From a virus: a stretch of 64,000 bases of DNA. This document shows, piece after piece, positions 4,471 to 29,583 of the stretch. The translations under genes and the position numbers were made by a program. The DNA is taken from the IMG/VR virus record IMGVR_UViG_3300047462_000120. One strand, 5' to 3'. The notes under the pieces were generated by a model. It was not told the DNA's origin, did no database searches, and saw only the letters and a program-made list of their open reading frames with translations. Numbering within the stretch: position 1 is the first letter of the stretch; each line of letters starts with the position of its first letter.

Positions 4471-4509
4471 GATTAATCTCCTTGGGGCCAGCCATGATTA
4501 ATCTCCTTG
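4464..4509. repeat. 21-bp direct repeat (period 25) duplicating the effector RBS and start codon at the vgrG 3' end
   Basis: CAGCCATGATTAATCTCCTTG occurs at 4464-4484 and 4489-4509. Confidence 0.95.
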
Positions 4510-13430: not shown

Positions 13431-16400
13431 TTATACCTCAGAAAGTTCGCGATGGACTGCCGCTTTCAACGCCTTCGGCGCGGTCTTTTGCGTGCGATCC
13501 AATGCTGACATCCGCATTTCCTGCACGCGCTTTACCACGGCAGGCATGCTGATGATGATCGGCGTGTCCGGGTTCTTTGCATTCCAGTCGTCGCGCATCT
13601 TGCGCGCATCGTTGACCATTTCCTTGTCGCCGGATGCCAAGCCTTGCGCCCATTGTTCCTGAATCTCTTTCGATGCCATCTTGGTCTGCCCCACGACATC
13701 GCGGGCCTGTTCGTCGGCATCCTTGACGCGATCGGTACTGTTGGGCTGGAAGCCGATCATCTTCATTACGGATTCGGTCGGCATAACGGCATTGACCTTG
13801 TAGCCGCGATCATCGCGATAGATTCCGGTATTGAGCATATCGGCCCCCTTCTGGATGTTGCGCAACGATGCTGGTAACAAGTCGCTCGCTGCGTCCAATA
13901 CCTTGCCATCGGCCAGCTTGTTGCCTGAATCGAAGGCGCGCTTGGCAAGGTCTGCAACCGGGCCAAAGACATCAGCGACATCGCTTGCATGCGAATCCTT
14001 CTTGACCAGAAAGCCAGTGCCGGGAACCAGTTTGCCAAGGCCAAAACGACCGGCCACGTCAATCGGCACACCTGGCAGTCCAGACAGGCCATGCAAGGCA
14101 ACATCAGAGCCATCCTGCCCCAAGGCATTGATCAGGAATTCCTGCTTTTCGCGCTTGCTGCTGAAGTTATAACCCATGCGCTGCAAGATGCCGTCGATGA
14201 CATCTTCCGCATCCTGTTCAAACGGCAAACCGTTCACACCACCGAGCAACATCAGGACAGCGGCCATCGTCATCGCACCTTTTCGTCCAGCAGTGCGTTC
14301 CGGCGATCCCGGTTCACCCGCCGTCGCCATACGTGACAGCAATTCCAAGTTGCTGATGCTAAATTGCTTGAAGGTCATCGCCAAGCCGCCGATAGTTGTG
14401 CGTCCCCATGTTGGCTTATTACCGGCGTTATAGACGCCTTGTGTGGCGGATACGGCATCGGCGGCGAACTTTTCGGGATTCGCAATACCTTCTTCAATCG
14501 CAGTCTTATATGCGGCAATGAAGGTGACCCGGCGATTGGTCAACTCGGCCATTGAGAACAACTTACCCCAACCGAGCGATATTTTCGACATGGTATTGCC
14601 GATTGCGGCCTTGGTATCACCGAATTTCGTGCCGTCGCCAGATTGCAATACGCCCTTGCCGTTGGCCTGCGCTTTCAACTGGTGAATTTCCTGCGGCGAC
14701 ACAATGCCCTCATCAGTCGCCCACTTCATCGCGGCATCCAGCTTGGCGTCGCCGGTTGTTTTCTTGCCAGCCAAACGCACCGCATCTAGCATACGCGCTG
14801 CCGATTTTCCTACCCCGCCGTATTGACTCAAATAGGGGAAGGCCATCGTGAAAGGCTGCGTCAAGTTGACCATTGCCGACGCGACCGAACCGCCCAGGTA
14901 TTGCGCGAACATCAAACCGCCCAAGGCAGAACCACCACCCTGCGGATTCTTGATATGTTCGGCCAGATTGACGGCAGCATCCTTTAATTCGCCATGATGC
15001 TTTGGAATCGCCTCGATCGCGTCGTTCAATTCGCCCATGTGGGCATTCATGGCGGTCAACTTGGAATTGGAATACAGGAAGCCAGCCAGCACGCGCCCTG
15101 AATCCTCGCTGAAGCCAGCGATACCCTTACGCTGGATCAGGCGTTTCATGGCGCTGCGATTGTTCTTCGCCAGCTTCAAATACGCTTGATAAGCTTCGTT
15201 GCCCGCCGCATCGTTGTTGTCCAAGCCAAGCATCGCGCCAAACAATTCAACGGTTTCCGGCGATACGCCTTGGAACAACTTATACGACTCTTTCGACATC
15301 GTACCGTGCGTGATCGTTGCATGCGGGTAGTTGGCACGCATTTGCCGTGCCATCTTTGCGGCTTCGGCCTTGTCTTCAAACATGCCAAAGTATTTTTCTT
15401 CACCACCTTGCGACACATAGACCGTGTAATCGCCGTAGCGGGACAGTGGCGCATAACCGCGATCGATCAAGTTTTGCGCTTTGTCGGATTTGGCAATCAT
15501 TTGGCTTGCCGTCTCCAAGTGCGAGTTTGCGCGATCTGGATTGCTCTTTGCCAGTTCCATGAAATGATCACGCAGCATTTCGCCCGCCTTATCAACGCTT
15601 CCGGTAGCCATTGTCGCATCGAGCATGCCCTCAGCGTCTTGACCGCCAAATTTCACCATGTCGCTGATTGCAAGATTCCTGATGCTGCGGTCTGTCGCCG
15701 CGCGGAACTCTTGATACATGCCGATTTGTTTGTCGTTCAGGCCGAAAATCGAGCGCAGTTCTTCCGGCTTCCAGACGATACCGCCTTGCAGCTCCGATTG
15801 CTCGAAACGGTCATTAATCGTGCTGTCATATTCGTCCTTTGGCAGCGCGAGCCAGCGCTTGTTTTGATCGTCGTCAATTGTCGCCTTGCGCAGCAGAACT
15901 TGGGCTTTCTGCGCGACTGACAAGGTTTTTGCAGCTTCTTCCATGTCAGCCAGCTTCAACGGCTTACCATCTATGCCACGCGCCCAGGTCAACGTCCCTT
16001 CAAAGATGGGCGCGGCGATCGCCTTGGTATCGGCTGGAGACAATGGCGACTTCCTCCAGATATCGGACATTTGCTCCAGCTTCGGAATGATCGTCGGTGC
16101 GAGGTCTGCCGCTTCATTGGCGTATGTCGAAACGTCACCAATGAAATTCTGCACGCGATCGTAGACCGCCTTGAACAACGGGCTGCGTGCGGCGAGGTTG
16201 TATTGCGTGCCGATGGTCTTATGCCACCAGTTCAGCTTACCGGCATCGTTGAATAGGTCACCAATGACATAATCAGCAGGCAAGCGTACCTCTTTGATGC
16301 TATTCCCGGCTTGGGTCAGAGCGTCGCCTAACGACCGTTTGTAGAGGTTACGGTCGGACGAAAAGTCGCCCTCAGACGGCGACGTGCGCTGACCGAGCGC

Positions 16401-19400
16401 ATCGCGACTCTGCTTCAGGAGGTAATAGAGGTCGGCATCCGTGCCATACGACAGATTCGGGAAGCCGTGCGCACGCAACCAGCTTCGCAGCATGCCGAGG
16501 AATGACTGAATCTTTGTGCGCAGTGTTGGCCTGTCTTCCGCGATATGCGCTAGTAGCTCGCTCATCATCGTGCTGATGTGCTGCTCGCTAGTGTCGCCGT
16601 GTTCGTTTGCCGATGCCGCGTGGTATTCGCTCAAGTCGATGCCGTGACGATTGGCGATATCGTTCAAGCCCCTCATCCCGCCAATAGCATGAAACAGGTC
16701 ATTCATACGTTGATCAAGGTACGGGCCAAACAACTTGTTAAATCCCTGATGGCCGTACAATTCATGAAGCAGCGTCTGTTCAAACTGCTTCGCGGTCGTG
16801 TGTTGATCCCGCACCACATAAACGGTGTTATCAGCGTGTACACCATCTATGGCATTTTCGGCATTGTCACGGATCGCCGCGTCCGTGATGAACTTCGGCA
16901 AATCGTGGAAGCTGTCTACAACGCGGATACTTGTACCAGCGAGTCCATTTTTAAAGCTGCTGACCACACCGCCAACAATTTTATCTGCGTCAGACCTACT
17001 GATCGTTGCACCTTCGCGATACGTCCCGGCGTTTGCGTCCGCGCTTTGACGCGAATACAATACCGGCGCGTCGCCGCTGGCATTGACTCCCTCATTGAGC
17101 GCAGCAGCTTGTTGCGCATTCGTTGCTTCTGGCAATGGAACATCATTTTGCAGCGGGTCGCCTTCTTTGGCTTGCGCTGCCTTATCCTGAGACAGTTCTT
17201 GGATTACTTGCTCCAGGCGCGCATTCTTGGCGTCGAGTTCGTCTTGCTTCGCAAATACGCCGCCCCTGCGTGCTTCCAAGTCTGGCAGGCTCGCCTTAGC
17301 CGTCTTCAGTTGCTTCTCCGCATCAGCTACATTATTCTTTCGCAGAGTGATATCGAGGTCGTTGTCTAGCGTCGATATCGCCATGCGCATGCCGCTCGTC
17401 GAATATGCTTCCAACGGATTTGTCTGTCCAGACGCCAAGGTAGAGCCATCCGGTCGCAACACTGCAAGCGTCGTGATATTGTAATCCGTCCAGTTCTTGC
17501 TATAGGTTGCTTCCAGAGGCAATCCCAAATAGCTGCCAAGCTGTTCAGTAATTTCCTTGTCTTTCATCATGCCGACCGTTTTTTTCGCGGCTTGCTCCGC
17601 AATATAACGCGCAGCATCCGTCCTGCCGATGTACTTGTCGCCGTCCATCGTCATTTCAAAATCGGCGGCATCTCCGAAGGCATGCGACACCTCTTCCATG
17701 TAGCTCGTTTGCGATGCCTTACGCTTACCATTGATGGCAATCGAGAACTTGGCATCCTCATCGCCCGCCTGTTGCTCCTTTTGCGCGGCATACGCGGCCT
17801 TTTTCGCCTCCTCAGCGGTGTAATAGGTCTTTCCTTCCACTTCAATCTTGCGCTCGGCAACTTTGTCTGACTGGTCAGTGAAAGCACGTTGCAGCATGTC
17901 GAGGTCTGCCCGCTGCTTCGCAATGATCGACGGCATGTTTTTGATATCACGCTGCGCGTCTTCGATCTGCGTGATAATTCCCCATTCCTTACGTGCGTGC
18001 TGACGCTTCAGCAGTTCAAGGCCGTCAATTTCCGACATCAACTTAACACGCTCAAGCAGTAACGGATCACCGGATGCAAGTGCGGCCAGTTCCGCCATAC
18101 TGACAGACGAATCATCCTCAAAATCCATTGAGAATTGCCCGTTGTAGTGACGAATACCATTGATCATCTTTAACTTGGACGCATTCAATGACCACATTTT
18201 CGCGTCAATCGTCCGCTCGGTCGCATAGGCTTTGATTGCCGCCTCGAATTTATCCATACCGTACTTCTCCAGCAAGCTGTTACCCTGGCGCTCGATCCGG
18301 CCTTCCCGTTGCTCAATGTCAGACGGCTTCCACGTCACATCAACGTGGTGCAGTCCAACCAGCCGTTGCTGAACATTTGTACCAGCACCCATACGCGGCG
18401 TCGAGCCGATCAACACGCGCGTAGTACCGTCATTAACGGAATCGAACAGCGCTTGCTTTTGCGCGTCGTTATTGGCCTCTTGAACAAAGCGGATTTCATT
18501 TGCCGGAATACCGCGCTTAATCAAGTTATCTTTGATTTGCTGGTAAGCGTTCCATCCACCATTCTGCGCGAGGCGCATCTCCTCCATCGCGTTCGGATCG
18601 TACTGTTCCAGGCTTTCACCGACACGGCGCAACGCTTCGTCGTCATTATTTGCCAGCGCTTTGCTCTGTTGCTGGAGCAACGCATCGTAGTTTTTGAGGG
18701 CGACAGCGTCTTCTCTCGCTTTCGGAACGGAGCGATCTAAGAAAACCAACTGCGTGCCGCGATCGGAATCCCATTGTTTATAGAGATTGTGAATTTCATC
18801 GGCAACGACATCCAGCTTTCCACCTTTTTCATCGCTTGGATTGCCTGGGTCTACGGCGCGCACGTCCAGCGATACCTTGCGTGCGCGATCCATCAGCTTC
18901 AGGCGCGCGATATTGCGCTCATACGGGTCATCGATCTTGGGAAGGTCATCGAATCCTGCAATGATGTTGTGCAGGAAAGCACTCTGTGCTGATGTGGGCT
19001 GGACAACGACAGATTCGCGGCCCCCGCCAGCTATCGTCGGAATAGGAAACTGCTCACCATTATTGTCTTCGGCATATGCCTTTTTGATGTCCTCGTTACT
19101 GACAGAATCCGTAAATCCGTTATACAAATCCATGAGCGAACGCATGTTCGACCATGTTCGGCCTAAGCGGTTGACTTCCTTCAGGCGTCCGGTTTCGTTA
19201 GGCTCCCATCCCGCATCCGTGGAGACAAATTGTGAGCGCCATGCGTCGAAGTGATCTAAACCAAGTTCGCTCAACTTATCGGCGGCGAGGTAGCGCATCA
19301 TGGTGTACATTTCCACCGCACTATTCGAGATCGGCGTGCCAGTAGCAAATGTGATTGTTCCTGTAGGCGACTCGCGCAGCACACGAATTTTGTTGTACAG

Positions 19401-22400
19401 GTCGAATGCCTTCTGCGAACCGGCTTTATTACCCATTCCCTTCACGCCGGTCAGCCGCGAGCTATAGAACAGGTTTTTGTACTCGTGCGCCTCGTCCACC
19501 GACAGGTCATCGATACCCATCTGCTCAAACGTCAGCAGGTTATCCTTTGTGCCGTCGCCCTTGAGCATCTCCATGCGCGCTGTGATCTTGTCGCGCAGGC
19601 GCTCCGCCTCCTTTACACCAAACGGCTTGCGGAAACCCGTATCGTTTCCACTTTCCTTTGCAGCGTCCTCTGCGTCTTGAATCGCCGCTTCAGCGGCTTT
19701 CAATTCGACTTCGAGGTAGCGTTGTTCGGTTTCCTTGGCAATCGGAATAAAGTAGAACGAACTATGTGGGACGATCACAATATCGTGATCGCCGGTTGCT
19801 ATTTTTGCGAATAATTTACGACGCTTTGAGCGTTCAAAGTCGGCCTTACCAGCAGCAAGCACCTTTGCCCCCGGATAAAGCCGATACACATCCGATGTAA
19901 ATTGCCCAACCATGTGATTTGGAACAACGATCATCGGTTTTTTTGATAGCGCCATCCGCCGACGTTCCATCGCACGCGCGATCATGGTGAACGTCTTGCC
20001 TGCGCCAACCGCATGATCTAGCATCATGAAACGTTCGGAAATTCCACGCCAGATCGCATTTTTTTGGTGTCGGCGCATTGCAATGACCGCATCAGGCACT
20101 TTGCCGGGCAAGATCAAATGCGAGCCATCGTGCTGGCGATTGACGACTGTATTGAATTTCTGGTTGAACATCGACACCAGCGCGTTGCGGCGATCGGAAT
20201 CCTTGAATACCCAATCGCTGAATTCGCTACTGATTGCCTTTGCCTTCAAAACCGCAAGCGCGGTTTCCTCCTGATTGATATGCGGCGTGCCTTTCTTGTC
20301 GTAATCAAGCACTTTCGTAGCACGGCTATTGAGCAAGTCATTGATCAACGCAGTCGATGACATGCGCGTCGTTCCCCATTCATCCTCGTTTGCACGGATA
20401 TGGGCGCTGTTTTCGATAGAATAGCTATTGGTCAGCGGGGAAAAACGCACGCGCGAATCGCCACCTGAAATGTGATCAATGAAGTCTTTGTATGTCTTTG
20501 CCGGTATCCATGCCGCGCCCAGGATCGGCGTCACGTTCTCCGCGCCCCATGATTCAGGCTGTACTTCCGTCAAAGCCTTGACGTTCTGTGGCAATCCGGC
20601 ATTTCGCGCAGCTTCCAGCTTCCGCACCACCTGGCCGGAAAGGTATTCGTTACGGCTGACGATATCGCCAGTTTCCGGGTCAGTGAAAACCAACGGCTTT
20701 TCGGCATTGAGCATTTCACTTGAAACGGATTCCTTCGGCAGTCCAAGCAATGACGCGATGCGATCCATATCCACGCGGCCAGATTCCGCCAGCGAAATGG
20801 AAAGCGCATCAGCTTGAGAATCTGCGTTTGTCGGCGGCTCATACTTCCTGACTACGCGCTCAGAAAGAATCGGGGCGGGCTTTGCTGACGCATCGCGCGC
20901 CTTTTCCCCAATTTTTTCCGCTTTCGCCTTGTTGACAGCAGGCCGGTATCCATGCTCAAGCGCCTGAACCAGTGCGCCATCCGGCATGTTTTGCACGAGC
21001 GCAGAGTTGGACGGTTCGCTGATAAAGCTATTACCAGCCACAAACTTTTTGTAGGCCGAATTCAATGCCCGGCGGTTTGTTTCGATGGTCTTTGCAGGAG
21101 CGTCTTCGGCTTCCAGCGTCAATTGCTGTTTGAGCAAATCGCGAATGCCGACGAGTTCCTTCAGACGGCTAAACCGCGTTTGCCCCAACAGTGCGCCCGC
21201 TGGTATATCGGCTTCATTCGTAAATACCTTGCGCTCGTACAAATTACGATTGGTCGCAACGTCGCCTTTCATGACCTTGACGTTCTTGCCCTGCGCATCA
21301 AGTACTGGCTCTATCCGATACCATTGACCCTGCGCGTTCATATACAGGTCTGGTGCCCACGGCGATGCCGCCGATAAGGTGCGCTTGGTCAGTTCGTAAT
21401 CACCTTCAGGTGTTTCGCGCTCGATAACCTGCTGCAAGCTGCCATCGTTGTGGAAAGCGATCGAACCTTGCTCATTTCCTTCCAGAGCGATATGCAGGGA
21501 ATCGCTCATTGCTTTGTGCCGCGCAATCGACGCATCAATGGCACTCTGCTGCTGCGCCATCACATTTTCGGGCAGACTCGCAACAGCAGCCTTGAGCATG
21601 CCTGCAAGGTCACCGCCATTGTCCAGCCTTACCGTAACGTCTTTCCCGTGCTGCATGGAACCAGAACGCTCCAGCGTCCCCATAATCATGTGCGGGTTCT
21701 GCTCGAAGTAGGAATTGACTTGCATCGGTTCACCGCCAAGGGGATCGGGAACCTTTGTTACGTTCACCCATGCCGGAACCTGCGCGGCCAATGCTTGCCG
21801 CTGCTTTTCTGCATCCTTATCGCGTTCCGGCTTGCTGCGTGCGGCGGCAAAGGCGGCTTCCATGTTGCCTTGTTCGGCCTCGTTCAATCGTTGCAAAAAC
21901 AGGATATCGGTGACAACTTGGGTGCGCGCATTTTCCCGGAACGCGGTATCCGGCAGACGAATTGCGGCCAGCAACTTGGCTTTCGACGCCAACATTTTGC
22001 GCGCAGTGGCGTCTGCCACATCGAGCAGATAGCGAGACACGACCTCGACTTGCAAGCCGCCCGGTTTGACGGCATCGAGCGATGCCAAGGTGAATTGATT
22101 GTGAATCGAAAGGCGGTTCAATTCCGGCTTGAATTGAAATCGCAACGATTGATTACCGAATGGTGGATTACCAATGGACAGGTCAAATGCGCCATCGGTC
22201 AACGGCACATTCTGGAAGCCACTATTCAATACAGTTTCGTGCGGGTAGAGCGCTTGCGCGATACGTGATGTCAAGCTGTCGTATTCAACACCGACAAACT
22301 TGGTGTTGTGCGCCAAGTCTTCAGGAATCAAACCGAGGAAGTTGCCTGTCCCCATCGACGACTCAAGCGTCAAACCACCCTTGAAACCGAGTTGACGCGC

Positions 22401-23420
22401 GGCGTCCCACATGGCGTTGACAACGGTTTGCGACGTGTAGTGCGAATCCAGTGTCGAACGCGACGCAAGCGCAAATTCTTTAGGAGAGAGCAGCGCGGCC
22501 AGTTCGGGGCCGCGCTTCTTCCAGGCGTCCTTGTATTCCCCTGTCAGGGGGTCAGGGAAAGCATTTGCCAAACCGCCCCAACCGACATAGCGCGCAAGAA
22601 TGGCTTGCTCGGTGGGTGTTGCGCGACGATTTTCCGACTCGATCGCTTTGAGGGTGCGGATTGCAAGCAGGTTGTCGTTGAACTTCTCGACTTCGCCGCC
22701 TTTACCGAGTCGGACATCATCGGTAATGCGGAAATTCTGCGCCGGGATCGATGGCGCATTGCTCGGCGTTGGCCGGGGTGTTAGGTCGGCTCGATCTCGT
22801 TGTCCGGGTCGTGCGGATCGAACATCATGTCCTGATACCGCCTCTCCAATTCGGCCCGCTCGATCTCTTCCCAATCGTCGGGGTCTGGTTCCTCCGGTCG
22901 CAGGAGAATGAAGTGCTTCAGCGCCACTTCCTCCGCCGCGTGCGCCGGATATCCCTGTTGCATCAAGTCCGATATCTCGTCGAACGCCTTCCTTGCTGCC
23001 GTCTGAGTCGCTTCGTTGAACTCCCCGGCCCGTTGCAGTTCGGCTGTCTTCTCCGGCAGCCACTGCTCCCAGTGGTCGCGCGCCATCTTCGCGAGTGTTG
23101 TTCTGTCCATCGTTACCGCCTTCACCGTTTATTTTTCCGGCCGCAAGTTTATCCGAATTGCTTCCGTTTACAAAATTAGTAACTTCCGGGGCAAATTCGC
23201 CCCAATCTACGGTGTGTCCATCATTCGCAGCGATAGCATTGATCTGCGCAACGATTCCTGTGCGTTCTTGGTGCGCCTCGTTGAGCATCAAATGCGCCGC
23301 TGTCATGTACGCTTCGGCTTTGGTGACGCCATCCGTATCCATCACTTCGGCAACTCGTTCTTTGAGCGCGGCCATTTCGGACTTTGGGTAAGATGCCAAG
23401 CAAAAGGAAGGAGATGCCAT
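13431..23420 (-). CDS. Giant DarB-like polyvalent protein (about 3329 aa): N6-type DNA methyltransferase, SNF2/DEAD helicase, metallopeptidase-like, PLxRFG region
   Basis: LARYVGWGG, ESSMGTGNF, IGNPPFG (about 22150-22175); DHAVGAGKT (about 20000), DEAHEYKN (about 19490), TGTPISN, WKPSDIEQREGRIERQGN; HELYGHQG (about 16760); APLSRYG (about 15440). ATG 23420 is preferred over 23519 because the extension spans a terminator/promoter. Confidence 0.92.
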   Translation of the reverse strand: MASPSFCLASYPKSEMAALKERVAEVMDTDGVTKAEAYMTAAHLMLNEAHQERTGIVAQINAIAANDGHTVDWGEFAPEVTNFVNGSNSDKLAAGKINGEGGNDGQNNTREDGARPLGAVAAGEDSRTATGRGVQRSDSDGSKEGVRRDIGLDATGISGARGGGSGAEALHSPATGGTRPRRLGRDRAGRIGEAVSGHDVRSARPGQRDRADLTPRPTPSNAPSIPAQNFRITDDVRLGKGGEVEKFNDNLLAIRTLKAIESENRRATPTEQAILARYVGWGGLANAFPDPLTGEYKDAWKKRGPELAALLSPKEFALASRSTLDSHYTSQTVVNAMWDAARQLGFKGGLTLESSMGTGNFLGLIPEDLAHNTKFVGVEYDSLTSRIAQALYPHETVLNSGFQNVPLTDGAFDLSIGNPPFGNQSLRFQFKPELNRLSIHNQFTLASLDAVKPGGLQVEVVSRYLLDVADATARKMLASKAKLLAAIRLPDTAFRENARTQVVTDILFLQRLNEAEQGNMEAAFAAARSKPERDKDAEKQRQALAAQVPAWVNVTKVPDPLGGEPMQVNSYFEQNPHMIMGTLERSGSMQHGKDVTVRLDNGGDLAGMLKAAVASLPENVMAQQQSAIDASIARHKAMSDSLHIALEGNEQGSIAFHNDGSLQQVIERETPEGDYELTKRTLSAASPWAPDLYMNAQGQWYRIEPVLDAQGKNVKVMKGDVATNRNLYERKVFTNEADIPAGALLGQTRFSRLKELVGIRDLLKQQLTLEAEDAPAKTIETNRRALNSAYKKFVAGNSFISEPSNSALVQNMPDGALVQALEHGYRPAVNKAKAEKIGEKARDASAKPAPILSERVVRKYEPPTNADSQADALSISLAESGRVDMDRIASLLGLPKESVSSEMLNAEKPLVFTDPETGDIVSRNEYLSGQVVRKLEAARNAGLPQNVKALTEVQPESWGAENVTPILGAAWIPAKTYKDFIDHISGGDSRVRFSPLTNSYSIENSAHIRANEDEWGTTRMSSTALINDLLNSRATKVLDYDKKGTPHINQEETALAVLKAKAISSEFSDWVFKDSDRRNALVSMFNQKFNTVVNRQHDGSHLILPGKVPDAVIAMRRHQKNAIWRGISERFMMLDHAVGAGKTFTMIARAMERRRMALSKKPMIVVPNHMVGQFTSDVYRLYPGAKVLAAGKADFERSKRRKLFAKIATGDHDIVIVPHSSFYFIPIAKETEQRYLEVELKAAEAAIQDAEDAAKESGNDTGFRKPFGVKEAERLRDKITARMEMLKGDGTKDNLLTFEQMGIDDLSVDEAHEYKNLFYSSRLTGVKGMGNKAGSQKAFDLYNKIRVLRESPTGTITFATGTPISNSAVEMYTMMRYLAADKLSELGLDHFDAWRSQFVSTDAGWEPNETGRLKEVNRLGRTWSNMRSLMDLYNGFTDSVSNEDIKKAYAEDNNGEQFPIPTIAGGGRESVVVQPTSAQSAFLHNIIAGFDDLPKIDDPYERNIARLKLMDRARKVSLDVRAVDPGNPSDEKGGKLDVVADEIHNLYKQWDSDRGTQLVFLDRSVPKAREDAVALKNYDALLQQQSKALANNDDEALRRVGESLEQYDPNAMEEMRLAQNGGWNAYQQIKDNLIKRGIPANEIRFVQEANNDAQKQALFDSVNDGTTRVLIGSTPRMGAGTNVQQRLVGLHHVDVTWKPSDIEQREGRIERQGNSLLEKYGMDKFEAAIKAYATERTIDAKMWSLNASKLKMINGIRHYNGQFSMDFEDDSSVSMAELAALASGDPLLLERVKLMSEIDGLELLKRQHARKEWGIITQIEDAQRDIKNMPSIIAKQRADLDMLQRAFTDQSDKVAERKIEVEGKTYYTAEEAKKAAYAAQKEQQAGDEDAKFSIAINGKRKASQTSYMEEVSHAFGDAADFEMTMDGDKYIGRTDAARYIAEQAAKKTVGMMKDKEITEQLGSYLGLPLEATYSKNWTDYNITTLAVLRPDGSTLASGQTNPLEAYSTSGMRMAISTLDNDLDITLRKNNVADAEKQLKTAKASLPDLEARRGGVFAKQDELDAKNARLEQVIQELSQDKAAQAKEGDPLQNDVPLPEATNAQQAAALNEGVNASGDAPVLYSRQSADANAGTYREGATISRSDADKIVGGVVSSFKNGLAGTSIRVVDSFHDLPKFITDAAIRDNAENAIDGVHADNTVYVVRDQHTTAKQFEQTLLHELYGHQGFNKLFGPYLDQRMNDLFHAIGGMRGLNDIANRHGIDLSEYHAASANEHGDTSEQHISTMMSELLAHIAEDRPTLRTKIQSFLGMLRSWLRAHGFPNLSYGTDADLYYLLKQSRDALGQRTSPSEGDFSSDRNLYKRSLGDALTQAGNSIKEVRLPADYVIGDLFNDAGKLNWWHKTIGTQYNLAARSPLFKAVYDRVQNFIGDVSTYANEAADLAPTIIPKLEQMSDIWRKSPLSPADTKAIAAPIFEGTLTWARGIDGKPLKLADMEEAAKTLSVAQKAQVLLRKATIDDDQNKRWLALPKDEYDSTINDRFEQSELQGGIVWKPEELRSIFGLNDKQIGMYQEFRAATDRSIRNLAISDMVKFGGQDAEGMLDATMATGSVDKAGEMLRDHFMELAKSNPDRANSHLETASQMIAKSDKAQNLIDRGYAPLSRYGDYTVYVSQGGEEKYFGMFEDKAEAAKMARQMRANYPHATITHGTMSKESYKLFQGVSPETVELFGAMLGLDNNDAAGNEAYQAYLKLAKNNRSAMKRLIQRKGIAGFSEDSGRVLAGFLYSNSKLTAMNAHMGELNDAIEAIPKHHGELKDAAVNLAEHIKNPQGGGSALGGLMFAQYLGGSVASAMVNLTQPFTMAFPYLSQYGGVGKSAARMLDAVRLAGKKTTGDAKLDAAMKWATDEGIVSPQEIHQLKAQANGKGVLQSGDGTKFGDTKAAIGNTMSKISLGWGKLFSMAELTNRRVTFIAAYKTAIEEGIANPEKFAADAVSATQGVYNAGNKPTWGRTTIGGLAMTFKQFSISNLELLSRMATAGEPGSPERTAGRKGAMTMAAVLMLLGGVNGLPFEQDAEDVIDGILQRMGYNFSSKREKQEFLINALGQDGSDVALHGLSGLPGVPIDVAGRFGLGKLVPGTGFLVKKDSHASDVADVFGPVADLAKRAFDSGNKLADGKVLDAASDLLPASLRNIQKGADMLNTGIYRDDRGYKVNAVMPTESVMKMIGFQPNSTDRVKDADEQARDVVGQTKMASKEIQEQWAQGLASGDKEMVNDARKMRDDWNAKNPDTPIIISMPAVVKRVQEMRMSALDRTQKTAPKALKAAVHRELSEV
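22781..23110 (-). CDS. Nested gene in the +1 frame inside the DarB-like giant (about 109 aa, remote TnpV-like pattern)
   Basis: GAAGGCGG RBS-like sequence before ATG 23110; GC-rich third positions; helical protein-like sequence. The giant frame over the same bases is a G/R/A/D-rich linker. Confidence 0.7.
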   Translation of the reverse strand: MDRTTLAKMARDHWEQWLPEKTAELQRAGEFNEATQTAARKAFDEISDLMQQGYPAHAAEEVALKHFILLRPEEPDPDDWEEIERAELERRYQDMMFDPHDPDNEIEPT

Positions 23421-23456
23421 GTGCGTTACTTTCTTGGAAAAATTGAGACGAAGGCG

Positions 23457-23487
23457 AAAAAAAACCGCGCCAGTTAAATTGGCGCGG
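23457..23487 (-). terminator. Intrinsic terminator between the two giant genes
   Basis: Perfect 8-bp stem CCGCGCCA/TGGCGCGG, 7-nt loop, followed by T8 on the minus strand. Confidence 0.8.
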
Positions 23488-23506
23488 GATTGTAGGGTTT
23501 GTTTCA
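23482..23506 (-). promoter_or_regulatory. Phage promoter-like motif, copy 1 (TGAAACAA-n4-TACAATCCCGCGC)
   Basis: Same motif at 33620-33644 and 58957-58981; each lies just upstream of a minus-strand start and contains a TACAAT -10-like hexamer. Confidence 0.7.
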
Positions 23507-23562
23507 GAATTTCCTGCATCGATTTGCAGGATTTTTTTCACTGCTCTATTTGATGGTCATGC

Positions 23563-26500
23563 CTAACCTGTCATACAGGCGATAAAATCTTCCAGCGCCT
23601 TGACGCGAAAAGAGACATCACGCATTGCAACATCGGCAGGAATGCTCTTTTGCGACGGCTTACCTGTATCCGCATCGCGCACATCGACATCCACCCGGAT
23701 ATCGGAAAGAGGTTTGATCGGCAGTCTCGCTAGGTCTGGCTCTGTAGAATCATTCTTGCCGAAAAGGTGAGCGGCATCAGCATCACTGGCGACGATTTGC
23801 CCATTCGCTTTTGCCGCAGCCAATTCGCGTTCGTGTTCGATCTGTTCTGCCTTGGCCTGATCGACGGTTTGCCGCTTATCGGCGTTGCCATCCTTCGTTT
23901 CCGTAGACTTACCCAGGCGGGATAGCGCAACCTCCGCATATTTACGCCCAACTTTATCCAGCGGGTAGTACCGCCCCAGCTCACGATTGACTAACGCATA
24001 TTTCGGCACTGCTCCCTTTGAAATATTCTCGATCGACGTATATCCCTCGGATATGTGCCGGTCGATTACATCCTTCCCGGAAATGATCGTGTTGTCCTCG
24101 TTACTGGTACGGAATCTCTGATTGCTCGCTGCTTTCTCCGCATCCGCTGCATCTTCTGCGGCTTGCTTGGCCTTGAAAGCCGCTGCCTTGGCTTTTTCGT
24201 GTGCCTTGTCTTGCTCTGGCGTTACGCCAGCCCATTCCTTGAGTTTTTCCCATGCAGCACCCTGCGCCTTTGGCAGTTTTTCACCAGTGAACTCTGCGAA
24301 GACTTTCTTAGACTTGTCGTTAAGACCGTTGGTGATCCACTTCAGGTGATAGGCATCCTTGTTGATCAAATCATCGGCAAATTGGCGATGAAAATCAGTT
24401 GGCGTCGGGCTGACACCTTTACGGCCTTCGGCCAGCAGTTGCGCATAGCGTGTGGCGATCGCGTTGGGGTCGAGCGGCTTCCGGCCATCCTGCTCGGCGT
24501 TGATTTTCTCCAGGGTAGGCGGCGCATCACGTTTGCCGTCTATGGATTCCTGTATGACCTGGCTTTTTCCAGTCGCTTGCTCTGGTTCGTCCAGGCCGCG
24601 CAGCTTCATTTCCTTCGCAATCGGGTCTGCGCGCTTCGGCAGTTCGTCCCTTGCCTGCATGAGTTGAGCATCCGACATCTGCTTGACAGATAGGCGGTTT
24701 AAGTCCTTCGCACTCAGCTTTGGTTCGTCCGCTTGTGTTTCTGCTGGTTGATCGGCAGTGGCGCTGGCCTGCACCTTGCCTGATTTAATGTCGGCCACTT
24801 CCTGAGCCAAAGCGTTGCGAGCGTCGGCGTAGTCGTAGTTGCCGTAGTGATCGCTAATCAGGTCGTGAATGCGTTGCTCAGATACGCCAGCCTTCAAAGC
24901 CTGCTTGACCGCACCCGATGCTTCCGGGTATTGCGCCGTCAGCTTTTCTTCCTTCGGCATATCTATATAGTTGTTTGCCATGAAGAACGCGTAAGCGAAA
25001 CCTTCCGGCGTCACACTGCGCGCGTTCTTGGTCGCTTGACTCTTGCCACCATACTTTGCCCACATCTTGCTGCCTTCGGTCGGCTCAACATGCGCAGTAG
25101 GCAAGTCAGCGTTGAAATTCCCCCATAGCATTGTCTTTTTAGTGTACGGCTCGCCAAAATGATTCGGGTCGAACGACATGCGCGCCTTCGGCAAGCCGGT
25201 AAGGTCTTCAATGCGGCCGACAGGGTTTTCCAGGCACCATACCGCAGGCCGGAAATACTCAATCGTGCGCAAGGTTTGGAATACCAGTTGCTTGGATGCC
25301 TCGGTACGGCCATCCGCATCCTTGGCAGCAAAGTGCCTGCTACCGCTTGACGCAAAATCAGTGCATGGGGTCGCGGCCAGGATCGCGTACACATCCGTCA
25401 AGTCATAATTCTCGTTGAAATATTCCGCTGAAAAATCATGAACATCTTGCCCGGTCTGGATATCCATCGTGACCACGTTGTATCCCGCTTCTTTCCACGG
25501 TTTAGACCATTCGCCGGATAGATCGAACAGCGATAACACGGTCTTTTGCGAGTTTTCAGACCGATATTGTTCGCCTTGCTGTTTGGCGTGTTCCTTCCAG
25601 CCTTCGACAACCTTTTTCGCCGCTTCAACAGACATCACAGGCTGATCTTTGACGCGCTGGCCGGTAATGGTTCGCTTGTCAGGATCGGCAAAGAGGTTCG
25701 CCCACTCATCCGTGATTTCCTTGAAGTCGCTCTTGTCCATCGTCAGAGGGACAATGCTTTCGTCAATATCGGCTTGACGGATCTTGTTCGCTTGGTCTGC
25801 GGTCTTATCGTATTTCACATCACGATTCAACGGCGTGCCGGTGTTTTGAGCATGTTCTGGCGCTGTCGATACGCTCTTGGGCTTCGATTCAGCAGCAGAA
25901 GTATTTTTTGCAGCCAATGAAGCATCGATCGCAGCGCGCGCGCCATCCTTCGTTGCGAATGGGCCAGCTACAAAACTGCCAAATTGCTTGCCGTTTCCCT
26001 TCAGGTCGCGAGCCATGAAGCCGTTGCCCATTGACGGCATGTAAATCGAATGGCCCTTGTATCTTTCAGGGTTATTGTTTGCTTCAGTCGGCTTTGATGG
26101 CGCTGCGTAGCCAGTCACAGCGTCAGGATGGGTGTTCGCCACATCCATTTCGCTATCGGTTCCAGGGTGAAACTCAGCGATTGCGTTGTACGCGGCTTTC
26201 CATTGGCGCGGGCTGATTTTATCGACATGCGGTGCAATGGCAGGATTCGCGCGCATCAGCTTTGATGCCTCCGTTACCGCCTGCGCGAGCGATCGCGCAC
26301 CCTTTCGCACCAATAATTCGATAACCTTTGACAAAGCTGGCAGAAGATCGCCAGCGGTATGCTGCTGACCCGTGATATTCAGCTTCGCGCCGAACACGTC
26401 ACCCAATACGTCGCCCAAATGTGCGAGCGCATCGGCCATTTCACTATCAAACGCGATATCTTCCGCCGACTTTTGCGGTGCGGCAGGTTGTTCTGGAGTC

Positions 26501-29500
26501 TTTTCAGGCGCAACGGCGCGCGCTTGCCGTTCTTTCTCTGCTTCTGCGGCGCGCAGCTTGGCAGCTTCGCGTTCTTCCTTCAGACGACGTGCGCGCTCCA
26601 ATCCGGGAGGAACCTTAACCGCCGCGTTGACATCGGAAACGATAGACCCTTCCGGCGCATTTCGCGCAAATGGCTGTTTGGTATTGCCATTCTTGAGCCA
26701 ATCCTTGAACGCGTCCATCGACGTTTCGGCAATGTTATTGCCGCCCGTCCAGTCCTTGTCATAGTTGGACTGGTAAGCGTCGCGCGCCTCCTGCATCGAG
26801 TTGAAACCAAGCATAACCTTATGCTCATCAGGTTTGCCGGTTTCAGGATTGGCCTGATCGACAACGAACACTTTTTTGCTGTCTTCATGCTTGCCGATAA
26901 AGGCGTCGATATGGTCTTTGTCCATACCAACCGTACCCCTGATGTAGCCGTAGTGATGCTGCACCGTGGTTTCCCAAGGCGTACCGTCGCGCGCGACGCC
27001 GGAACGGGTAGAGCCTGCCGGATTTTCGACAGAGATATCCAGACCATTGAAGCGCACATGGCCCTTCGCATAGTTGCCCGCTTCCTTTTGCGCGTCAGTC
27101 GGCTCGGCAAGATCATTGAGCGGCGATGTCGCCGCTTCATGGGCAGCGCGATCGAGCGCGGTTAATGGCGCGCTGTGCGCTTCTTGATCTTCATTTGCAC
27201 CAGAACGGCCAGATCGTGCAAGTCCATCAACCGCTGCGCGCTGAGTGTTTTCGGTTGAAACGTTCTGCGCTTCATTTCTTCCCGCGTGGTCAAGTCCAAT
27301 TTGATCATTTTTTCGTGCAATTCCGGGTTCCAGACTACCGGACGATACATTTCCATTGACATCATGTGCCTTGATAGCTTGTTGGTAATAAGACCTTTGC
27401 CGGTCGTTCAACTTGAAAATCTTGGTTGACCCAGGCTTGTGCAAAATGTTGCCGCTCGGCGTCTTCAGGCGCATTCCCTGTGCGATTGCCGCATCGACGA
27501 CTACTGTGTTCACTTTGCCGGAACGTACTGCCGGTGCAACTACCTTTTCTGGTACGGCGTCGGTGAGTTCATTCGGTGAACTCGCTTCGGGCCTGATCGC
27601 ATCATCAATGTAGTCGTGGTCTTCGTCGGTAAGGCGCGGGTTAATGTAGCCATCGCGCTTGAGCAGAGCAGCATAAGCATCTTTCTTATTCTCTGATGCA
27701 ATGGCGTCATTGCTCAAAACTTGCTCACGCAACGCAGCGCGGTTCGCATCAGCCTGCGCTTTGTATGCCGCTGCTGTGCGGGCATCAGCGGCCTTGATCG
27801 CTTCGTCTTGTTGCTGCGCCGCTGCGCGAGCGGCCTGCTGCTGTTGCAGCGCTTCGATGCGCGATTGCTCGGCCTGTGCAGCAGCATTGCGATCACGGTC
27901 TTCTTTGAGCAAGCCTTCCATTTGCGCATGCTCACCGAATCCTGTCGGAGAAAACATTGCGCGCGTGGTCGCCATATCCTGTAACGCCTGATGCGAGATA
28001 GGTGGCAAGATCGAATCCATCGACCCCGGCTCCGCTGGCGTCTGCAAATGCTGTACGGCATTCAGGATGGATTGCGACAGAAAGCGGGTCGGCGCAGCGG
28101 TGTAGCCACCATCGGCATGCGGAATTATTGTCAGTGGCTTTTCACCTGACATATTCCAACGCGGGATCGCGTCCTGCAAGTATTGCAGGCCAAACGGTTG
28201 CCCCATCGTTGAGAACTTTTGCAGATTTTCCAGACCGGCCGTGTTCTGCACCTTTTCCGGTGCGGTATAGTCAATCGCGTTGGGGTGCGGGTGATTTGCA
28301 GGGTCGGTCGGGTCATAGAGCGACAATGGCTGCTTTACCGTCGATGGGTCAACCGGTTTCGATGTCGGCGTGTAGTCGATGGACTTGCTCAAGTCGGCAT
28401 TTGCATTCGCAATTGCGGCTGTCGCGGTCTGACCGGCGTTTGCTGCGCGCGTGAGTGTGCCAGTCTCAGGCACTAATTGCGGGTCAACCTGACCGGCTGC
28501 ATGCTGTCCGTGCGCAAGCGCACCAGTGCCAACACCCATGACTGCGCCGGAAACGAGACTATCTGCTGCGGCGTTCTCCACGCCCCTCATCAAGTCCGGT
28601 TCCCCATTGGCGACGTTGGTGAAATACTGTTCTTGCGCAGCCTGCGGCATACCCTGCAATACGCCTTGATGCAATGCCTCCTTACCCATTTGCATGAGTT
28701 TGTTGCCCGCAACGCCCACCGAATCCGCTCCGGTCGCCATTTGCAGCTTGGAGTCCCCCATCAGTTTGCCAGTACCGTAGGTAAGCAAGCCAGTTCCTAC
28801 ACCTGCTGCAATAGAAGGAAGTGCATAGTCGTCATAGCTTCGGCCATTTTCTGCCGCAGTCTCCGCGATATTACCGGCACTTATTGATCCCATTGACGCT
28901 GCGCCAACAGCATGCAGCGTGTTGCTTGCATTATTGATCGCCGTTTCCGCCGCACTCTTGACCGGAACGCCACTTGCTGCTGATGCTGCCTTTGCCGCTG
29001 CCGTGTCTGCCTGCAAAGCTGCTTGCGCTGCCGCCTGTTCCGTTCCTCCTGCTGATAGAACGCTCTTTGCTGCGGCCATGCCCTCATCACTGGCAAGCGC
29101 AGCCTTCAAACCAATGCGAGCAGCAGTCAAGCCGCCCAGGGCGTAAGTTTCACCGATATCTGGAAGAGATTCGACAATGCCACCCATCAAAGCGCGCGGA
29201 TTCTGCACGCCAGCAATGATCTTGTTGACAAAGCCGTCTGCGCTTGCAACCTTCTGATCCGACGCCTTTTGGCTATCACTCAAATAATCGCCAAGAAATT
29301 GATTTGTGGCTTCGGGGTCATAACCCACCGAGCGCAACGCATCGCCAGCCATACCGCCAGATACCAAGTCGGCGCGGCCGACCCAACTCTTGCCATAGTC
29401 AACGACGCCTTGTGCCGCTTTAATTCCCATATCGCCTATCGTGCGCATTACACCAGCTTGCGGGGGGGGCGGCGGGGGCGGTTGAACTGAATTAACGTAA

Positions 29501-29583
29501 GCATCGAAATCCGATAAATCCGATTGAGGCTCGTTGCTTGGCTGCTCGTACTGCGGTAGTGGCTTTCTGTTCGCCATGTTCAT
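23563..29583 (-). CDS. Large polyvalent virion/ejection protein (2006 aa) with pyrophosphatase-like (InPase) and C5 cytosine-methyltransferase-like domains
   Basis: AGNYAKGH..NGLDISVENP..HYGYIRGT.G.DKDHID..DEHKVMLGF (about 26740-27080); LSLFDLSG, TPCTDFASSG, LENPVGRI, YTKKT (about 25120-25540); Ala/Gly-rich hydrophobic N-terminal part. Confidence 0.88.
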   Translation of the reverse strand: MNMANRKPLPQYEQPSNEPQSDLSDFDAYVNSVQPPPPPPPQAGVMRTIGDMGIKAAQGVVDYGKSWVGRADLVSGGMAGDALRSVGYDPEATNQFLGDYLSDSQKASDQKVASADGFVNKIIAGVQNPRALMGGIVESLPDIGETYALGGLTAARIGLKAALASDEGMAAAKSVLSAGGTEQAAAQAALQADTAAAKAASAASGVPVKSAAETAINNASNTLHAVGAASMGSISAGNIAETAAENGRSYDDYALPSIAAGVGTGLLTYGTGKLMGDSKLQMATGADSVGVAGNKLMQMGKEALHQGVLQGMPQAAQEQYFTNVANGEPDLMRGVENAAADSLVSGAVMGVGTGALAHGQHAAGQVDPQLVPETGTLTRAANAGQTATAAIANANADLSKSIDYTPTSKPVDPSTVKQPLSLYDPTDPANHPHPNAIDYTAPEKVQNTAGLENLQKFSTMGQPFGLQYLQDAIPRWNMSGEKPLTIIPHADGGYTAAPTRFLSQSILNAVQHLQTPAEPGSMDSILPPISHQALQDMATTRAMFSPTGFGEHAQMEGLLKEDRDRNAAAQAEQSRIEALQQQQAARAAAQQQDEAIKAADARTAAAYKAQADANRAALREQVLSNDAIASENKKDAYAALLKRDGYINPRLTDEDHDYIDDAIRPEASSPNELTDAVPEKVVAPAVRSGKVNTVVVDAAIAQGMRLKTPSGNILHKPGSTKIFKLNDRQRSYYQQAIKAHDVNGNVSSGSLEPGIARKNDQIGLDHAGRNEAQNVSTENTQRAAVDGLARSGRSGANEDQEAHSAPLTALDRAAHEAATSPLNDLAEPTDAQKEAGNYAKGHVRFNGLDISVENPAGSTRSGVARDGTPWETTVQHHYGYIRGTVGMDKDHIDAFIGKHEDSKKVFVVDQANPETGKPDEHKVMLGFNSMQEARDAYQSNYDKDWTGGNNIAETSMDAFKDWLKNGNTKQPFARNAPEGSIVSDVNAAVKVPPGLERARRLKEEREAAKLRAAEAEKERQARAVAPEKTPEQPAAPQKSAEDIAFDSEMADALAHLGDVLGDVFGAKLNITGQQHTAGDLLPALSKVIELLVRKGARSLAQAVTEASKLMRANPAIAPHVDKISPRQWKAAYNAIAEFHPGTDSEMDVANTHPDAVTGYAAPSKPTEANNNPERYKGHSIYMPSMGNGFMARDLKGNGKQFGSFVAGPFATKDGARAAIDASLAAKNTSAAESKPKSVSTAPEHAQNTGTPLNRDVKYDKTADQANKIRQADIDESIVPLTMDKSDFKEITDEWANLFADPDKRTITGQRVKDQPVMSVEAAKKVVEGWKEHAKQQGEQYRSENSQKTVLSLFDLSGEWSKPWKEAGYNVVTMDIQTGQDVHDFSAEYFNENYDLTDVYAILAATPCTDFASSGSRHFAAKDADGRTEASKQLVFQTLRTIEYFRPAVWCLENPVGRIEDLTGLPKARMSFDPNHFGEPYTKKTMLWGNFNADLPTAHVEPTEGSKMWAKYGGKSQATKNARSVTPEGFAYAFFMANNYIDMPKEEKLTAQYPEASGAVKQALKAGVSEQRIHDLISDHYGNYDYADARNALAQEVADIKSGKVQASATADQPAETQADEPKLSAKDLNRLSVKQMSDAQLMQARDELPKRADPIAKEMKLRGLDEPEQATGKSQVIQESIDGKRDAPPTLEKINAEQDGRKPLDPNAIATRYAQLLAEGRKGVSPTPTDFHRQFADDLINKDAYHLKWITNGLNDKSKKVFAEFTGEKLPKAQGAAWEKLKEWAGVTPEQDKAHEKAKAAAFKAKQAAEDAADAEKAASNQRFRTSNEDNTIISGKDVIDRHISEGYTSIENISKGAVPKYALVNRELGRYYPLDKVGRKYAEVALSRLGKSTETKDGNADKRQTVDQAKAEQIEHERELAAAKANGQIVASDADAAHLFGKNDSTEPDLARLPIKPLSDIRVDVDVRDADTGKPSQKSIPADVAMRDVSFRVKALEDFIACMTG
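27162..27365 (-). CDS. Candidate nested gene in the +1 frame inside the 2006-aa protein
   Basis: 67-aa protein-like ORF (YRPVVWNPELHEKMIKLDLTTREEMKRRTF) with three clustered ATGs. The host frame there is a low-complexity linker. RBS is weak. Confidence 0.5.
   Translation of the reverse strand: MMSMEMYRPVVWNPELHEKMIKLDLTTREEMKRRTFQPKTLSAQRLMDLHDLAVLVQMKIKKRTARH

Follow-up and report, generated by a model that had tools for sequence, protein, structure and literature searches.

Does the linker of a giant phage protein conceal a second gene in another reading frame, or is the open frame seen there an accident of its sequence? The question arises on the minus strand of the window, a 64,000-nt stretch of viral DNA (IMG/VR record IMGVR_UViG_3300047462_000120). 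The first-pass annotation had proposed that a 67-aa minus-strand ORF at 27162–27365 lies nested in the +1 frame of the gene for a 2006-aa protein, beneath a host-frame linker reading HDVNGNVSS... just ahead of the InPase domain (host residues 830–964). The ORF was located exactly as claimed, and both the host-frame reading and the geometry were confirmed: the 67 codons plus stop begin at base 2 of host codon 740 and underlie host codons 740–808 (Table 1). The 2006-aa host matches PF18823 (E 1e-55), the methyltransferase family phrog_757 and the DarB-like phrog_10089, and its locus is a virion/ejection-protein module, not a lysis cassette. Our analysis points to a probably real embedded protein-coding gene, putatively translated, at 27162–27362 (minus strand), which would occupy the +1 frame of the linker joining the N-terminal module of the giant to its InPase domain.

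Table 1. Features of the nested ORF and its host gene, in window coordinates.
Feature	Position	Strand	Remark
Host gene, 2006-aa polyvalent virion-type protein with InPase and C5-methylase-like domains	23563..29583	−	
InPase domain, host residues 830–964 (Pfam)	26692..27096	−	Directly downstream of linker
Host-frame linker, codons 740–808 (HDVNGNV...APLT)	27160..27366	−	Least conserved host stretch hereabouts
Putative nested CDS, 66 codons plus TAA (27162–27164)	27162..27362	−	ATG common to all four sequences
Extra upstream in-frame ATG, yielding the 67-aa form	27363..27365	−	Window and L054 only
AAGG, Shine–Dalgarno-like tetramer	27369..27372	−	6 nt upstream of conserved ATG
17-nt block GATGTCAATGGAAATGT, identical in 4/4 sequences	27347..27363	−	Three nested-frame ATGs (M-S-M-E-M)
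Block invariant except for one T/C position	27208..27228	−	Nested MDLHDLA; host DGLAR(S/P)G
Invariant block GCGCCATTAA, terminating in nested stop codon	27162..27171	−	Four-sequence alignment

Judged from one sequence alone, the nested ORF does not exceed the length expected by chance. Nine ATG-initiated ORFs of at least 50 aa occur in the +1 frame of the 2006-aa gene, and six of these reach 67 aa or more. When codons are permuted or synonymously shuffled, ORFs of 67 aa or longer number 3.5 ± 1.5, at least one appears in 99% of shuffles, and the span itself remains stop-free in 20% of synonymous reshuffles. Such figures suit a chance ORF, in which a drifting spacer happens to avoid +1 stops and owes its conservation to shared ancestry or to recent exchange of the segment among four lineages, a reading that we consider improbable. 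What exceeds chance is the behaviour of the ORF across homologues and its frame-specific composition.

Composition distinguishes this span from the rest of the gene. Its +1 codon-usage log-odds are 0.19–0.39 per codon, against −0.48 ± 0.21 (maximum −0.095) for the +1 frame elsewhere and 0.35 ± 0.09 for real frames; the host GC3 drops to 0.30, the lowest in the gene (0.57 ± 0.07). Codon usage and GC3 periodicity thus shift to the +1 frame within the span, a genuine-gene signature that is unique in the gene and not expected of a chance ORF. Scanning the codon usage of 19 genes, we found 27 windows won by another sense frame, of which 21 lie on the nested ORFs of two giants (the second is described below); clear wins of this kind occur only in these two. 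A marginal codon-usage signal at 5865–6029 contains no ORF. Because the +1 frame has phage-normal codon usage and GC3 phase and the host frame lacks both, the small-gene frame looks native to the segment and that of the giant looks like a secondary one.

The comparative set comprised the window and three contigs with this linker: L054 (= L001), L052 and L053 (= L002). These four sequences, the only ones found, form two cherries, so that every comparative test has low power. Scans of viral, genome and metagenome contigs for more homologues recovered conserved flanks only, DNA-pattern scans of viral contigs yielded nothing beyond the same two contigs and some chance 17-mers, and a search for shorter protein fragments found none. 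Reads from four sequencing runs gave short, low-depth fragments that were identical or fell outside the span and so carried no information on it. All holders of the sequence are moss or soil metagenome DNA contigs, with no RNA holder among those listed. Farther relatives of the 2006-aa giant have different linkers, without the nested ORF.

In all three linker-bearing homologues the +1 frame is open, with an identical ATG (27362) and an identical TAA. Accumulation of stops in this frame, which the first-pass annotation had named in advance as evidence against a gene, is therefore absent. The gene has 11 other sense ORFs of 50 aa or more in alternative frames; these served as controls, and all 11 are broken in at least one alignable homologue. 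Neutral simulation on a four-taxon tree (98 parsimony events over 204 nt, host frame kept open) left all four sequences stop-free in 1.2% of runs (P = 0.012), and with the start and stop also required in place in 0.1% (P = 0.001). These results argue against a chance ORF, although the distances across the span are star-like (~0.24 for most pairs) and come from four sequences only. Two other frames over the span were rejected: the antisense 77-aa ORF at 27126–27359 (plus strand) has stops in L054 and L053 and shows no excess conservation in its frame, and the +2 sense frame is full of stops.

Selection signals follow the same boundaries. Host synonymous differences number 10 against 40.9 expected over codons 741–765 and 0 against 26.9 expected over codons 772–796, the deepest dip in the gene; the 27208..27228 block falls within the latter 25-codon window. 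Pairs differ at 0.00–0.17 of four-fold sites in the span and at 0.27–0.57 in the adjoining flanks. Variable columns at host codon positions 1/2/3 number 29/21/24 of 66 in the span, an even spread such as unconstrained DNA (and hence a chance ORF) would show; the flanks give 24/20/66 of 100 and 23/16/83 of 157. The synonymous-site constraint is, however, bounded by the ATG and TAA of the nested ORF, with frozen blocks that start at the one and finish at the other, which a chance ORF leaves unaccounted for. In the 17-nt block, host third positions vary in 1/6 codons, compared with 5/9 immediately upstream, and third-position variation returns immediately past the block that ends in the stop codon.

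The ratio of non-synonymous to synonymous change also switches frame. Across the six pairs, dN/dS in the span is 0.63–1.98 for the host frame and 0.38–0.62 for the +1 frame; in the flanks it is 0.07–0.16 for the host and 1.2–4.0 for +1. The two frames are equal in the L052–L053 pair (host 0.63, +1 0.62). An apparent host dN/dS of at least 1 in overlaps is an artefact that forms the topic of PMC4316641. We then re-placed the observed substitutions by permutation, holding host codon position and base fixed. The +1 frame was conserved above random in 6/6 pairs (z 1.8–3.95; P 0.03 and 0.009 for the independent cherries), the host frame gave z of at most 0.3 in 5/6 pairs, and no other frame was consistent. 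Such +1-specific conservative substitution is again not expected of a chance ORF. Within the gene, +1 identity tops host identity only over this span, where the +2 frame (0.57) is not far under +1 (0.63). Counted by event, synonymous changes are only slightly enriched in the +1 frame (26/96 events, 20% expected), and the apparent purifying selection on the +1 protein is a modest effect. Comparison of the four sequences shows that selection maintains the frame of 66 codons together with its ATG and TAA, and that the host frame over the same 200 nt is held free of stops but otherwise drifts. The nested-gene reading is thus supported by the frozen host synonymous sites, the dN/dS frame switch, the conservative substitutions confined to +1 and the +1 composition.

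Frozen third positions might instead mark a nucleic-acid element that constrains the host codons, such as a structured RNA, a promoter or regulatory site within the gene, or a recombination junction. The three invariant blocks of 10–21 nucleotides would fit such an element, relatives do swap modules at this junction, and a second synonymous dip at host codons 1692–1716 has no conserved ORF: the 54-aa +1 ORF there is broken in L053, and we rejected it as a further candidate, no other frame being conserved there. Yet the span folds no more stably than its shuffles (MFE z +0.76), its covariation term is ~0, it has no Rfam match and no sigma-70-like promoter, and terminator-like sites number 1 against 1.4 expected. 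An element of this kind, which we rate as very unlikely indeed, would also leave the +1-specific conservative substitutions, the +1 dN/dS below 1, the intact ORF and the coding-type composition unexplained.

How would the embedded gene be translated? We propose that ribosomes initiate internally on the late transcript of the giant gene, using the conserved AUG that lies 6 nt past AAGG. The distance from AAGG to ATG equals that of bona fide window genes; its context is tcAAGGcacatgATG, compared with acAAGGattacATG of the 2006-aa giant itself and other window genes. AAGGC is unchanged in 4/4 sequences, but AAGG is largely forced, since it is mostly dictated by host Lys-Ala, which is conserved. 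The extra codon at 27363..27365, an ATG in the 67-aa form, is ACG in L052 and GCG in L053.

The same selection signals would arise if ribosomes underwent programmed frameshifting (+1 or −2) near codon 740, yielding a truncated giant of 740 N-terminal residues with a 66-residue alternative tail; in three homologues no +1 stop intervenes over the ~35 codons ahead of the ATG. We nevertheless hold a frameshift to be quite improbable. The four sequences contain no slippery or conserved shift motif upstream, in the window a +1 stop precedes the ATG by 14 codons, and the synonymous constraint begins at the ATG cluster and not further upstream; three in-frame ATGs and a correctly spaced AAGG are conserved.

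The native codon usage and GC3 phase of the +1 frame could also be left over from a domain, for instance a winged helix resembling FtsK-gamma, that the giant once read in frame and that two compensating frameshifts displaced, so that it now decays unexpressed. Relative L003 has, at this very junction, an FtsK_gamma domain of 63 residues, and the best local hhalign match pairs RLMDLHDLAVLV of the peptide with RLMESMEAAGIV of FtsK-gamma at about the same relative place. The similarity is, however, insignificant: BLASTP gives no alignment, hhalign assigns a probability of 0.1%, and P values are 0.23 for the Smith–Waterman shuffle and 0.6 for the ungapped profile. A Pfam search of the peptide for FtsK gamma (PF09397) returned no match even at E 10. 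A remnant should moreover have acquired stops after ~0.5 substitutions per site (P 0.012), and conservative replacements are not expected of one, so we judge a decaying relic to be very unlikely.

The embedded-gene reading also accords with how the host frame behaves. Host-frame identity to the three homologues is 43/60, 34/60 and 29/59 in the linker, compared with 51–54/60 in the flanks; the linker stays open and otherwise evolves like a passive spacer. An AF2 model of host residues 500–1000 (5 sequences; pLDDT 47.5) scores lowest in the linker (25–32), but is no useful test of disorder because the InPase domain is poorly modelled too.

The predicted product is a protein of ~8 kDa with a pI of 10.2, no Cys, no lipobox, no signal peptide and an N-terminus that is not hydrophobic. 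AF2 models the peptide as three helices at moderate confidence (pLDDT 68). No homologue was found in a word search of 5.8 billion proteins or in a profile search of 1.84 billion, and the tblastn check that the first-pass annotation had called for, run in six frames over 50,697 phage and 72,556 plasmid records, gave no match. The peptide belongs to no family in Pfam or PHROGs, where a Rop-like match for 1/4 members stays below threshold (15.7 bits, cut-off 27). A PDB profile search and ESM Atlas features gave no match, comparison of the fold with PDB, BFVD and the Atlas gave no meaningful match, and the window holds no paralogue. Gene callers forbid a gene inside a gene; a nested gene would therefore be invisible in annotated phage genomes and protein databases, which is probably why the peptide has no homologues on record.

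We would picture a small, basic, mostly helical protein of ~8 kDa, co-expressed with the giant. Rz1-type o-spanins are encoded in lysis cassettes and combine a signal peptide that bears a lipobox Cys with a Pro-rich mature part; we rejected this identity for a peptide that has neither Cys nor a hydrophobic N-terminus and whose neighbours are virion/ejection genes. As an arrangement, lambda Rz/Rz1 is still instructive. There the part coding for mature Rz1 lies within a mutationally silent Rz stretch of ~40 codons, and nowhere in the nest does one stretch serve both proteins (PMC5295617). In both systems a small gene with its own start (here predicted) lies wholly within a larger one in the +1 frame, and here too the nested frame is conserved while the host frame drifts. 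The two differ in that there is no sequence relation between them, and in that the host here is a 2006-aa polyvalent protein, whereas Rz is a 153-aa spanin. Our leading but rather doubtful guess at function, modelled on Rz/Rz1 and on the small helpers of injected anti-restriction giants, is that the small protein works with the virion/ejection giants in packaging or delivery, or acts as a nucleic-acid-binding helper.

A second case lies next door. The neighbouring 3362-aa DarB-like giant contains a nested +1-frame gene at 22781–23125, whose peptide is 93/76/72% identical across its homologue set, compared with 86/59/60% for its host frame. Like the nested ORF of the 2006-aa giant, it is small, separately started and in the +1 frame, and the coding signal changes frame there. 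The two peptides are unrelated in sequence, the neighbour's being acidic and ~109 aa long, that of the 2006-aa giant basic and 66 aa.

Embedded genes made by overprinting are familiar from phiX174 (E in D, B in A); in the classical case, codon usage is atypical in the new frame. The present locus resembles these in that one DNA stretch would supply two sense frames, with host synonymous change suppressed. It differs in that the nested frame is genome-typical in usage and the host frame atypical, which suggests a giant reading through a pre-existing or inserted small gene and not the de novo birth of a new one. Overlapping and embedded genes of small phages and bacteria are the subject of reviews (PMC8227390, PMC7017920).

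The polyvalent proteins of phages and conjugative elements include InPase and FtsK modules (Iyer et al. 2017, PMC5512222), and the host giant resembles this class in combining a phage-type InPase with a methylase beside ejection proteins, with an FtsK domain in a relative. A term search of that paper (PMC5512222) found no mention of overlapping or linker-nested genes. If the nested gene is real, the linkers of polyvalent anti-defence giants would be more than spacers, offering room to encode small partner proteins; what the host frame spells in the linker would follow from the nested gene as a by-product, and analyses of evolutionary rate or disorder in such giants would be misread at these sites. 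The 200-nt span would also make a small, clean test case for internal initiation in very long bacterial genes, as its three ATGs can be silenced while the giant stays unchanged.

It is possible, if far from assured, that small genes with translation of their own are a regular feature of the domain linkers of injected polyvalent giants. The two neighbouring giants would each carry one, acidic in one case and basic in the other; selection would act on the nested frame, with its native codon usage, the giant would read through it, and the products would be dedicated partners such as helpers in packaging, ejection or counter-defence. Were this so, it would amount to a widespread, unannotated layer of the phage proteome, and to a route by which small genes may be captured into, or released from, giant ORFs.

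The window comes from a podovirus-like phage or prophage from moss metagenomes. Its terminase, portal, major head, internal virion and DNA-ejection protein genes come before the minus-strand genes listed first in the table. The 2006-aa product carries both InPase and C5-methylase-like domains and is therefore a polyvalent protein of the phage type (PMC5512222). Beneath its linker directly ahead of the InPase domain (host-frame reading HDVNGNVSS...), the first-pass annotation had placed a 67-aa ORF in the +1 frame, and the ORF is there as described. Judged from one sequence alone it means little. The gene's +1 frame has six ATG-initiated ORFs of 67 aa or longer, with 3.5 ± 1.5 of that size expected by chance (codon and synonymous shuffles), and 20% of reshuffles preserving the host protein leave the span of the nested ORF open. 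An AAGG upstream of the nested ATG sits in a context (tcAAGGcacatgATG) similar to the giant's own (acAAGGattacATG) and to those of other window genes, but is mostly dictated by a conserved host Lys-Ala.

Features in the window and in homologous contigs (prefix L)
Feature	Position	Strand	Description
715-aa protein gene		minus	
2006-aa giant (host) gene	23563–29583	minus	InPase (Pfam), residues 830–964; C5-methylase-like, about residues 1340–1550
3362-aa giant gene	13431–23519	minus	DarB-like
Nested ORF	27162–27365	minus	67 aa, +1 frame, host codons 740–808
Neighbouring giant's nested ORF	22781–23125	minus	+1 frame of 3362-aa gene
The same ORF in L052	L052:3871–4212		
Antisense ORF	27126–27359	plus	77 aa
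Control ORF	26580–27140	minus	186 aa from ATG, +1 frame, under InPase domain
Second synonymous dip	24436–24510		Host codons 1692–1716
ORF at second dip	24366–24530		54 aa, +1 frame
Marginal +1 codon-usage win	5865–6029		In 853-aa gene (4473–7034)
Start of 3362-aa gene	23355–23519		First ~55 codons
L003 junction	L003:3409–3588		FtsK_gamma winged helix PF09397, E 9e-23
L055 junction	L055:2933–3328		Short Ala/Pro-rich linker
L093 junction	L093:1877–1966		Massilia violaceinigra plasmid, 5555-aa giant; short Ala/Pro-rich linker

Viral, genome and metagenome contigs were scanned and a 5.8-billion protein set was searched twice, yielding only three further lineages that share the ORF-bearing linker: L054 (= L001), L052 and L053 (= L002), with local host identities of 82, 73 and 70%. 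More distant relatives of the giant keep both flanking modules with different content at the linker junction. This boundary between the InPase domain and the conserved module upstream of it is therefore a place where modules are swapped, and the ORF-bearing spacer is a one-clade trait. One local resemblance (RLMDLHDLAVLV versus RLMESMEAAGIV) could mark the ORF as an FtsK-gamma relic, but it was not significant in four tests.

Stops accumulating among homologues had been named in the first-pass annotation as the evidence against a gene here, and none were found: the +1 frame is open in all three linker homologues, starting at a shared ATG (window position 27362; the upstream ATG at 27365 is missing from two of the three) and ending at a shared TAA inside an invariant GCGCCATTAA. 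Over this span stops occur in the +2 frame and in each of the three antisense frames. The antisense ORF covering nearly the same span has stops in L054 and L053, shows no frame-specific conservation and was rejected. The gene contains 12 alternative-frame sense ORFs that reach 50 aa, candidate included, and of these only the nested ORF is stop-free in every homologue; those of 186, 127 and 115 aa are each interrupted. The 186-aa ORF, the longest of the set, begins right after the candidate and serves as negative control; with two to three stops per homologue, it is a chance ORF. In a neutral simulation of sequence evolution (four-taxon tree, 98 parsimony events in 204 nt, host frame forced open), 1.2% of runs left all four sequences with an open +1 frame, and 0.1% did so with start and stop in place.

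A codon-alignment scan places the deepest synonymous dip of the whole gene over the nested ORF, with 0 synonymous differences observed versus 26.9 expected at host codons 772–796 and 10 versus 40.9 at codons 741–765. Pairwise four-fold site differences are 0.00–0.17 in the span versus 0.27–0.57 in the adjoining flanks, and variable columns at host positions 1/2/3 number 29/21/24 of 66 in the span versus 24/20/66 of 100 and 23/16/83 of 157 in the flanks. Host third-position variation ceases at the ATG cluster (invariant 17-mer GATGTCAATGGAAATGT) and returns right past the TAA. RNA structure, an Rfam family or a promoter could each cause such constraint, but all were looked for and are unsupported. 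A frameshift isoform of the host protein is disfavoured by the lack of a conserved shift site, by a +1 stop 14 codons upstream in the window and by constraint that begins at the ATG. The second-deepest dip of the gene (7 observed versus 44 expected) has no conserved alternative frame, and the 54-aa ORF there is broken in L053; this dip lies where the alignment picks up again past a variable module, and a recombination junction or nucleic-acid element may therefore account for it.

Nei–Gojobori dN/dS over six pairs is 0.63–1.98 for the host frame and 0.38–0.62 for the +1 frame in the span, versus 0.07–0.16 and 1.2–4.0 in the flanks. Nowhere else in the gene does +1 identity exceed host identity. 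The +1 replacements are protein-like (I/V, D/E, Y/F, M/L, K/R), and P8, W11 and an MDLHDLA block are invariant. When observed substitutions were shuffled among sites sharing host codon position and base, every one of the six pairs showed the actual placement to be more conservative than random for the +1 protein (z 1.8–3.95; P 0.03 and 0.009 for the independent cherries); the host protein did no better than random in five of six, and no other frame was consistent. This selection signal is of moderate strength rather than overwhelming: counted by event, synonymous changes are only slightly enriched in the +1 frame, dN/dS is equal in both frames for one cherry, and +2 identity in the span is just slightly below +1 identity.

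Composition adds a line of evidence that needs one sequence only and is independent of the comparisons. Scored against the phage's codon usage, the +1 frame reaches 0.19–0.39 log-odds per codon in the span; outside it, the values are 0.35 ± 0.09 for real frames and −0.48 ± 0.21 for the +1 frame, which never rises above −0.095. Host GC3 in the span is the gene minimum (0.30; mean 0.57, s.d. 0.07), and the +1 frame shows a normal GC1/2/3 pattern (0.50/0.31/0.70). The nested frame thus looks native to the segment's DNA, which argues against classical de novo overprinting and favours a giant gene reading through an inserted or pre-existing small gene. An unbiased scan covering 19 genes gave the win to a non-annotated sense frame in only 27 of 2528 windows, 5 on the candidate and 16 on the neighbouring giant's nested ORF. 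The marginal win within the 853-aa gene (two windows, with no ORF reaching 40 aa) is probably noise. At the start of the 3362-aa gene, windows one and two favour the +2 frame over the annotated one on codon usage; the annotated start may lie too far upstream, or a further small overlap may exist.

From these comparisons, the candidate is likely a real embedded gene, with translation predicted. Its product would have 66 residues (~8 kDa, pI 10.2, Cys-free), modelled as three helices (H13–21, H27–31, H42–62; pLDDT 68), and sequence and structure searches returned zero homologues and zero fold matches. In the neighbouring giant, the nested peptide is 93, 76 and 72% identical in L054, L052 and L053, exceeding its host frame (86, 59 and 60%) among these homologues. 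Gene calling in L052 makes that ORF a separate 113-aa gene and starts the giant only downstream. The literature searched contained no description of genes nested in polyvalent-protein linkers. Of described architectures, lambda Rz/Rz1 comes closest: Rz1 lies entirely in the +1 frame of Rz, its mature part in a mutationally silent Rz linker (PMC5295617). The logic is the same, but the proteins and context are unrelated, and the nested peptide lacks the features of Rz1 membership. By analogy alone, the product of the nested ORF might act as a small partner made together with the injected giants.
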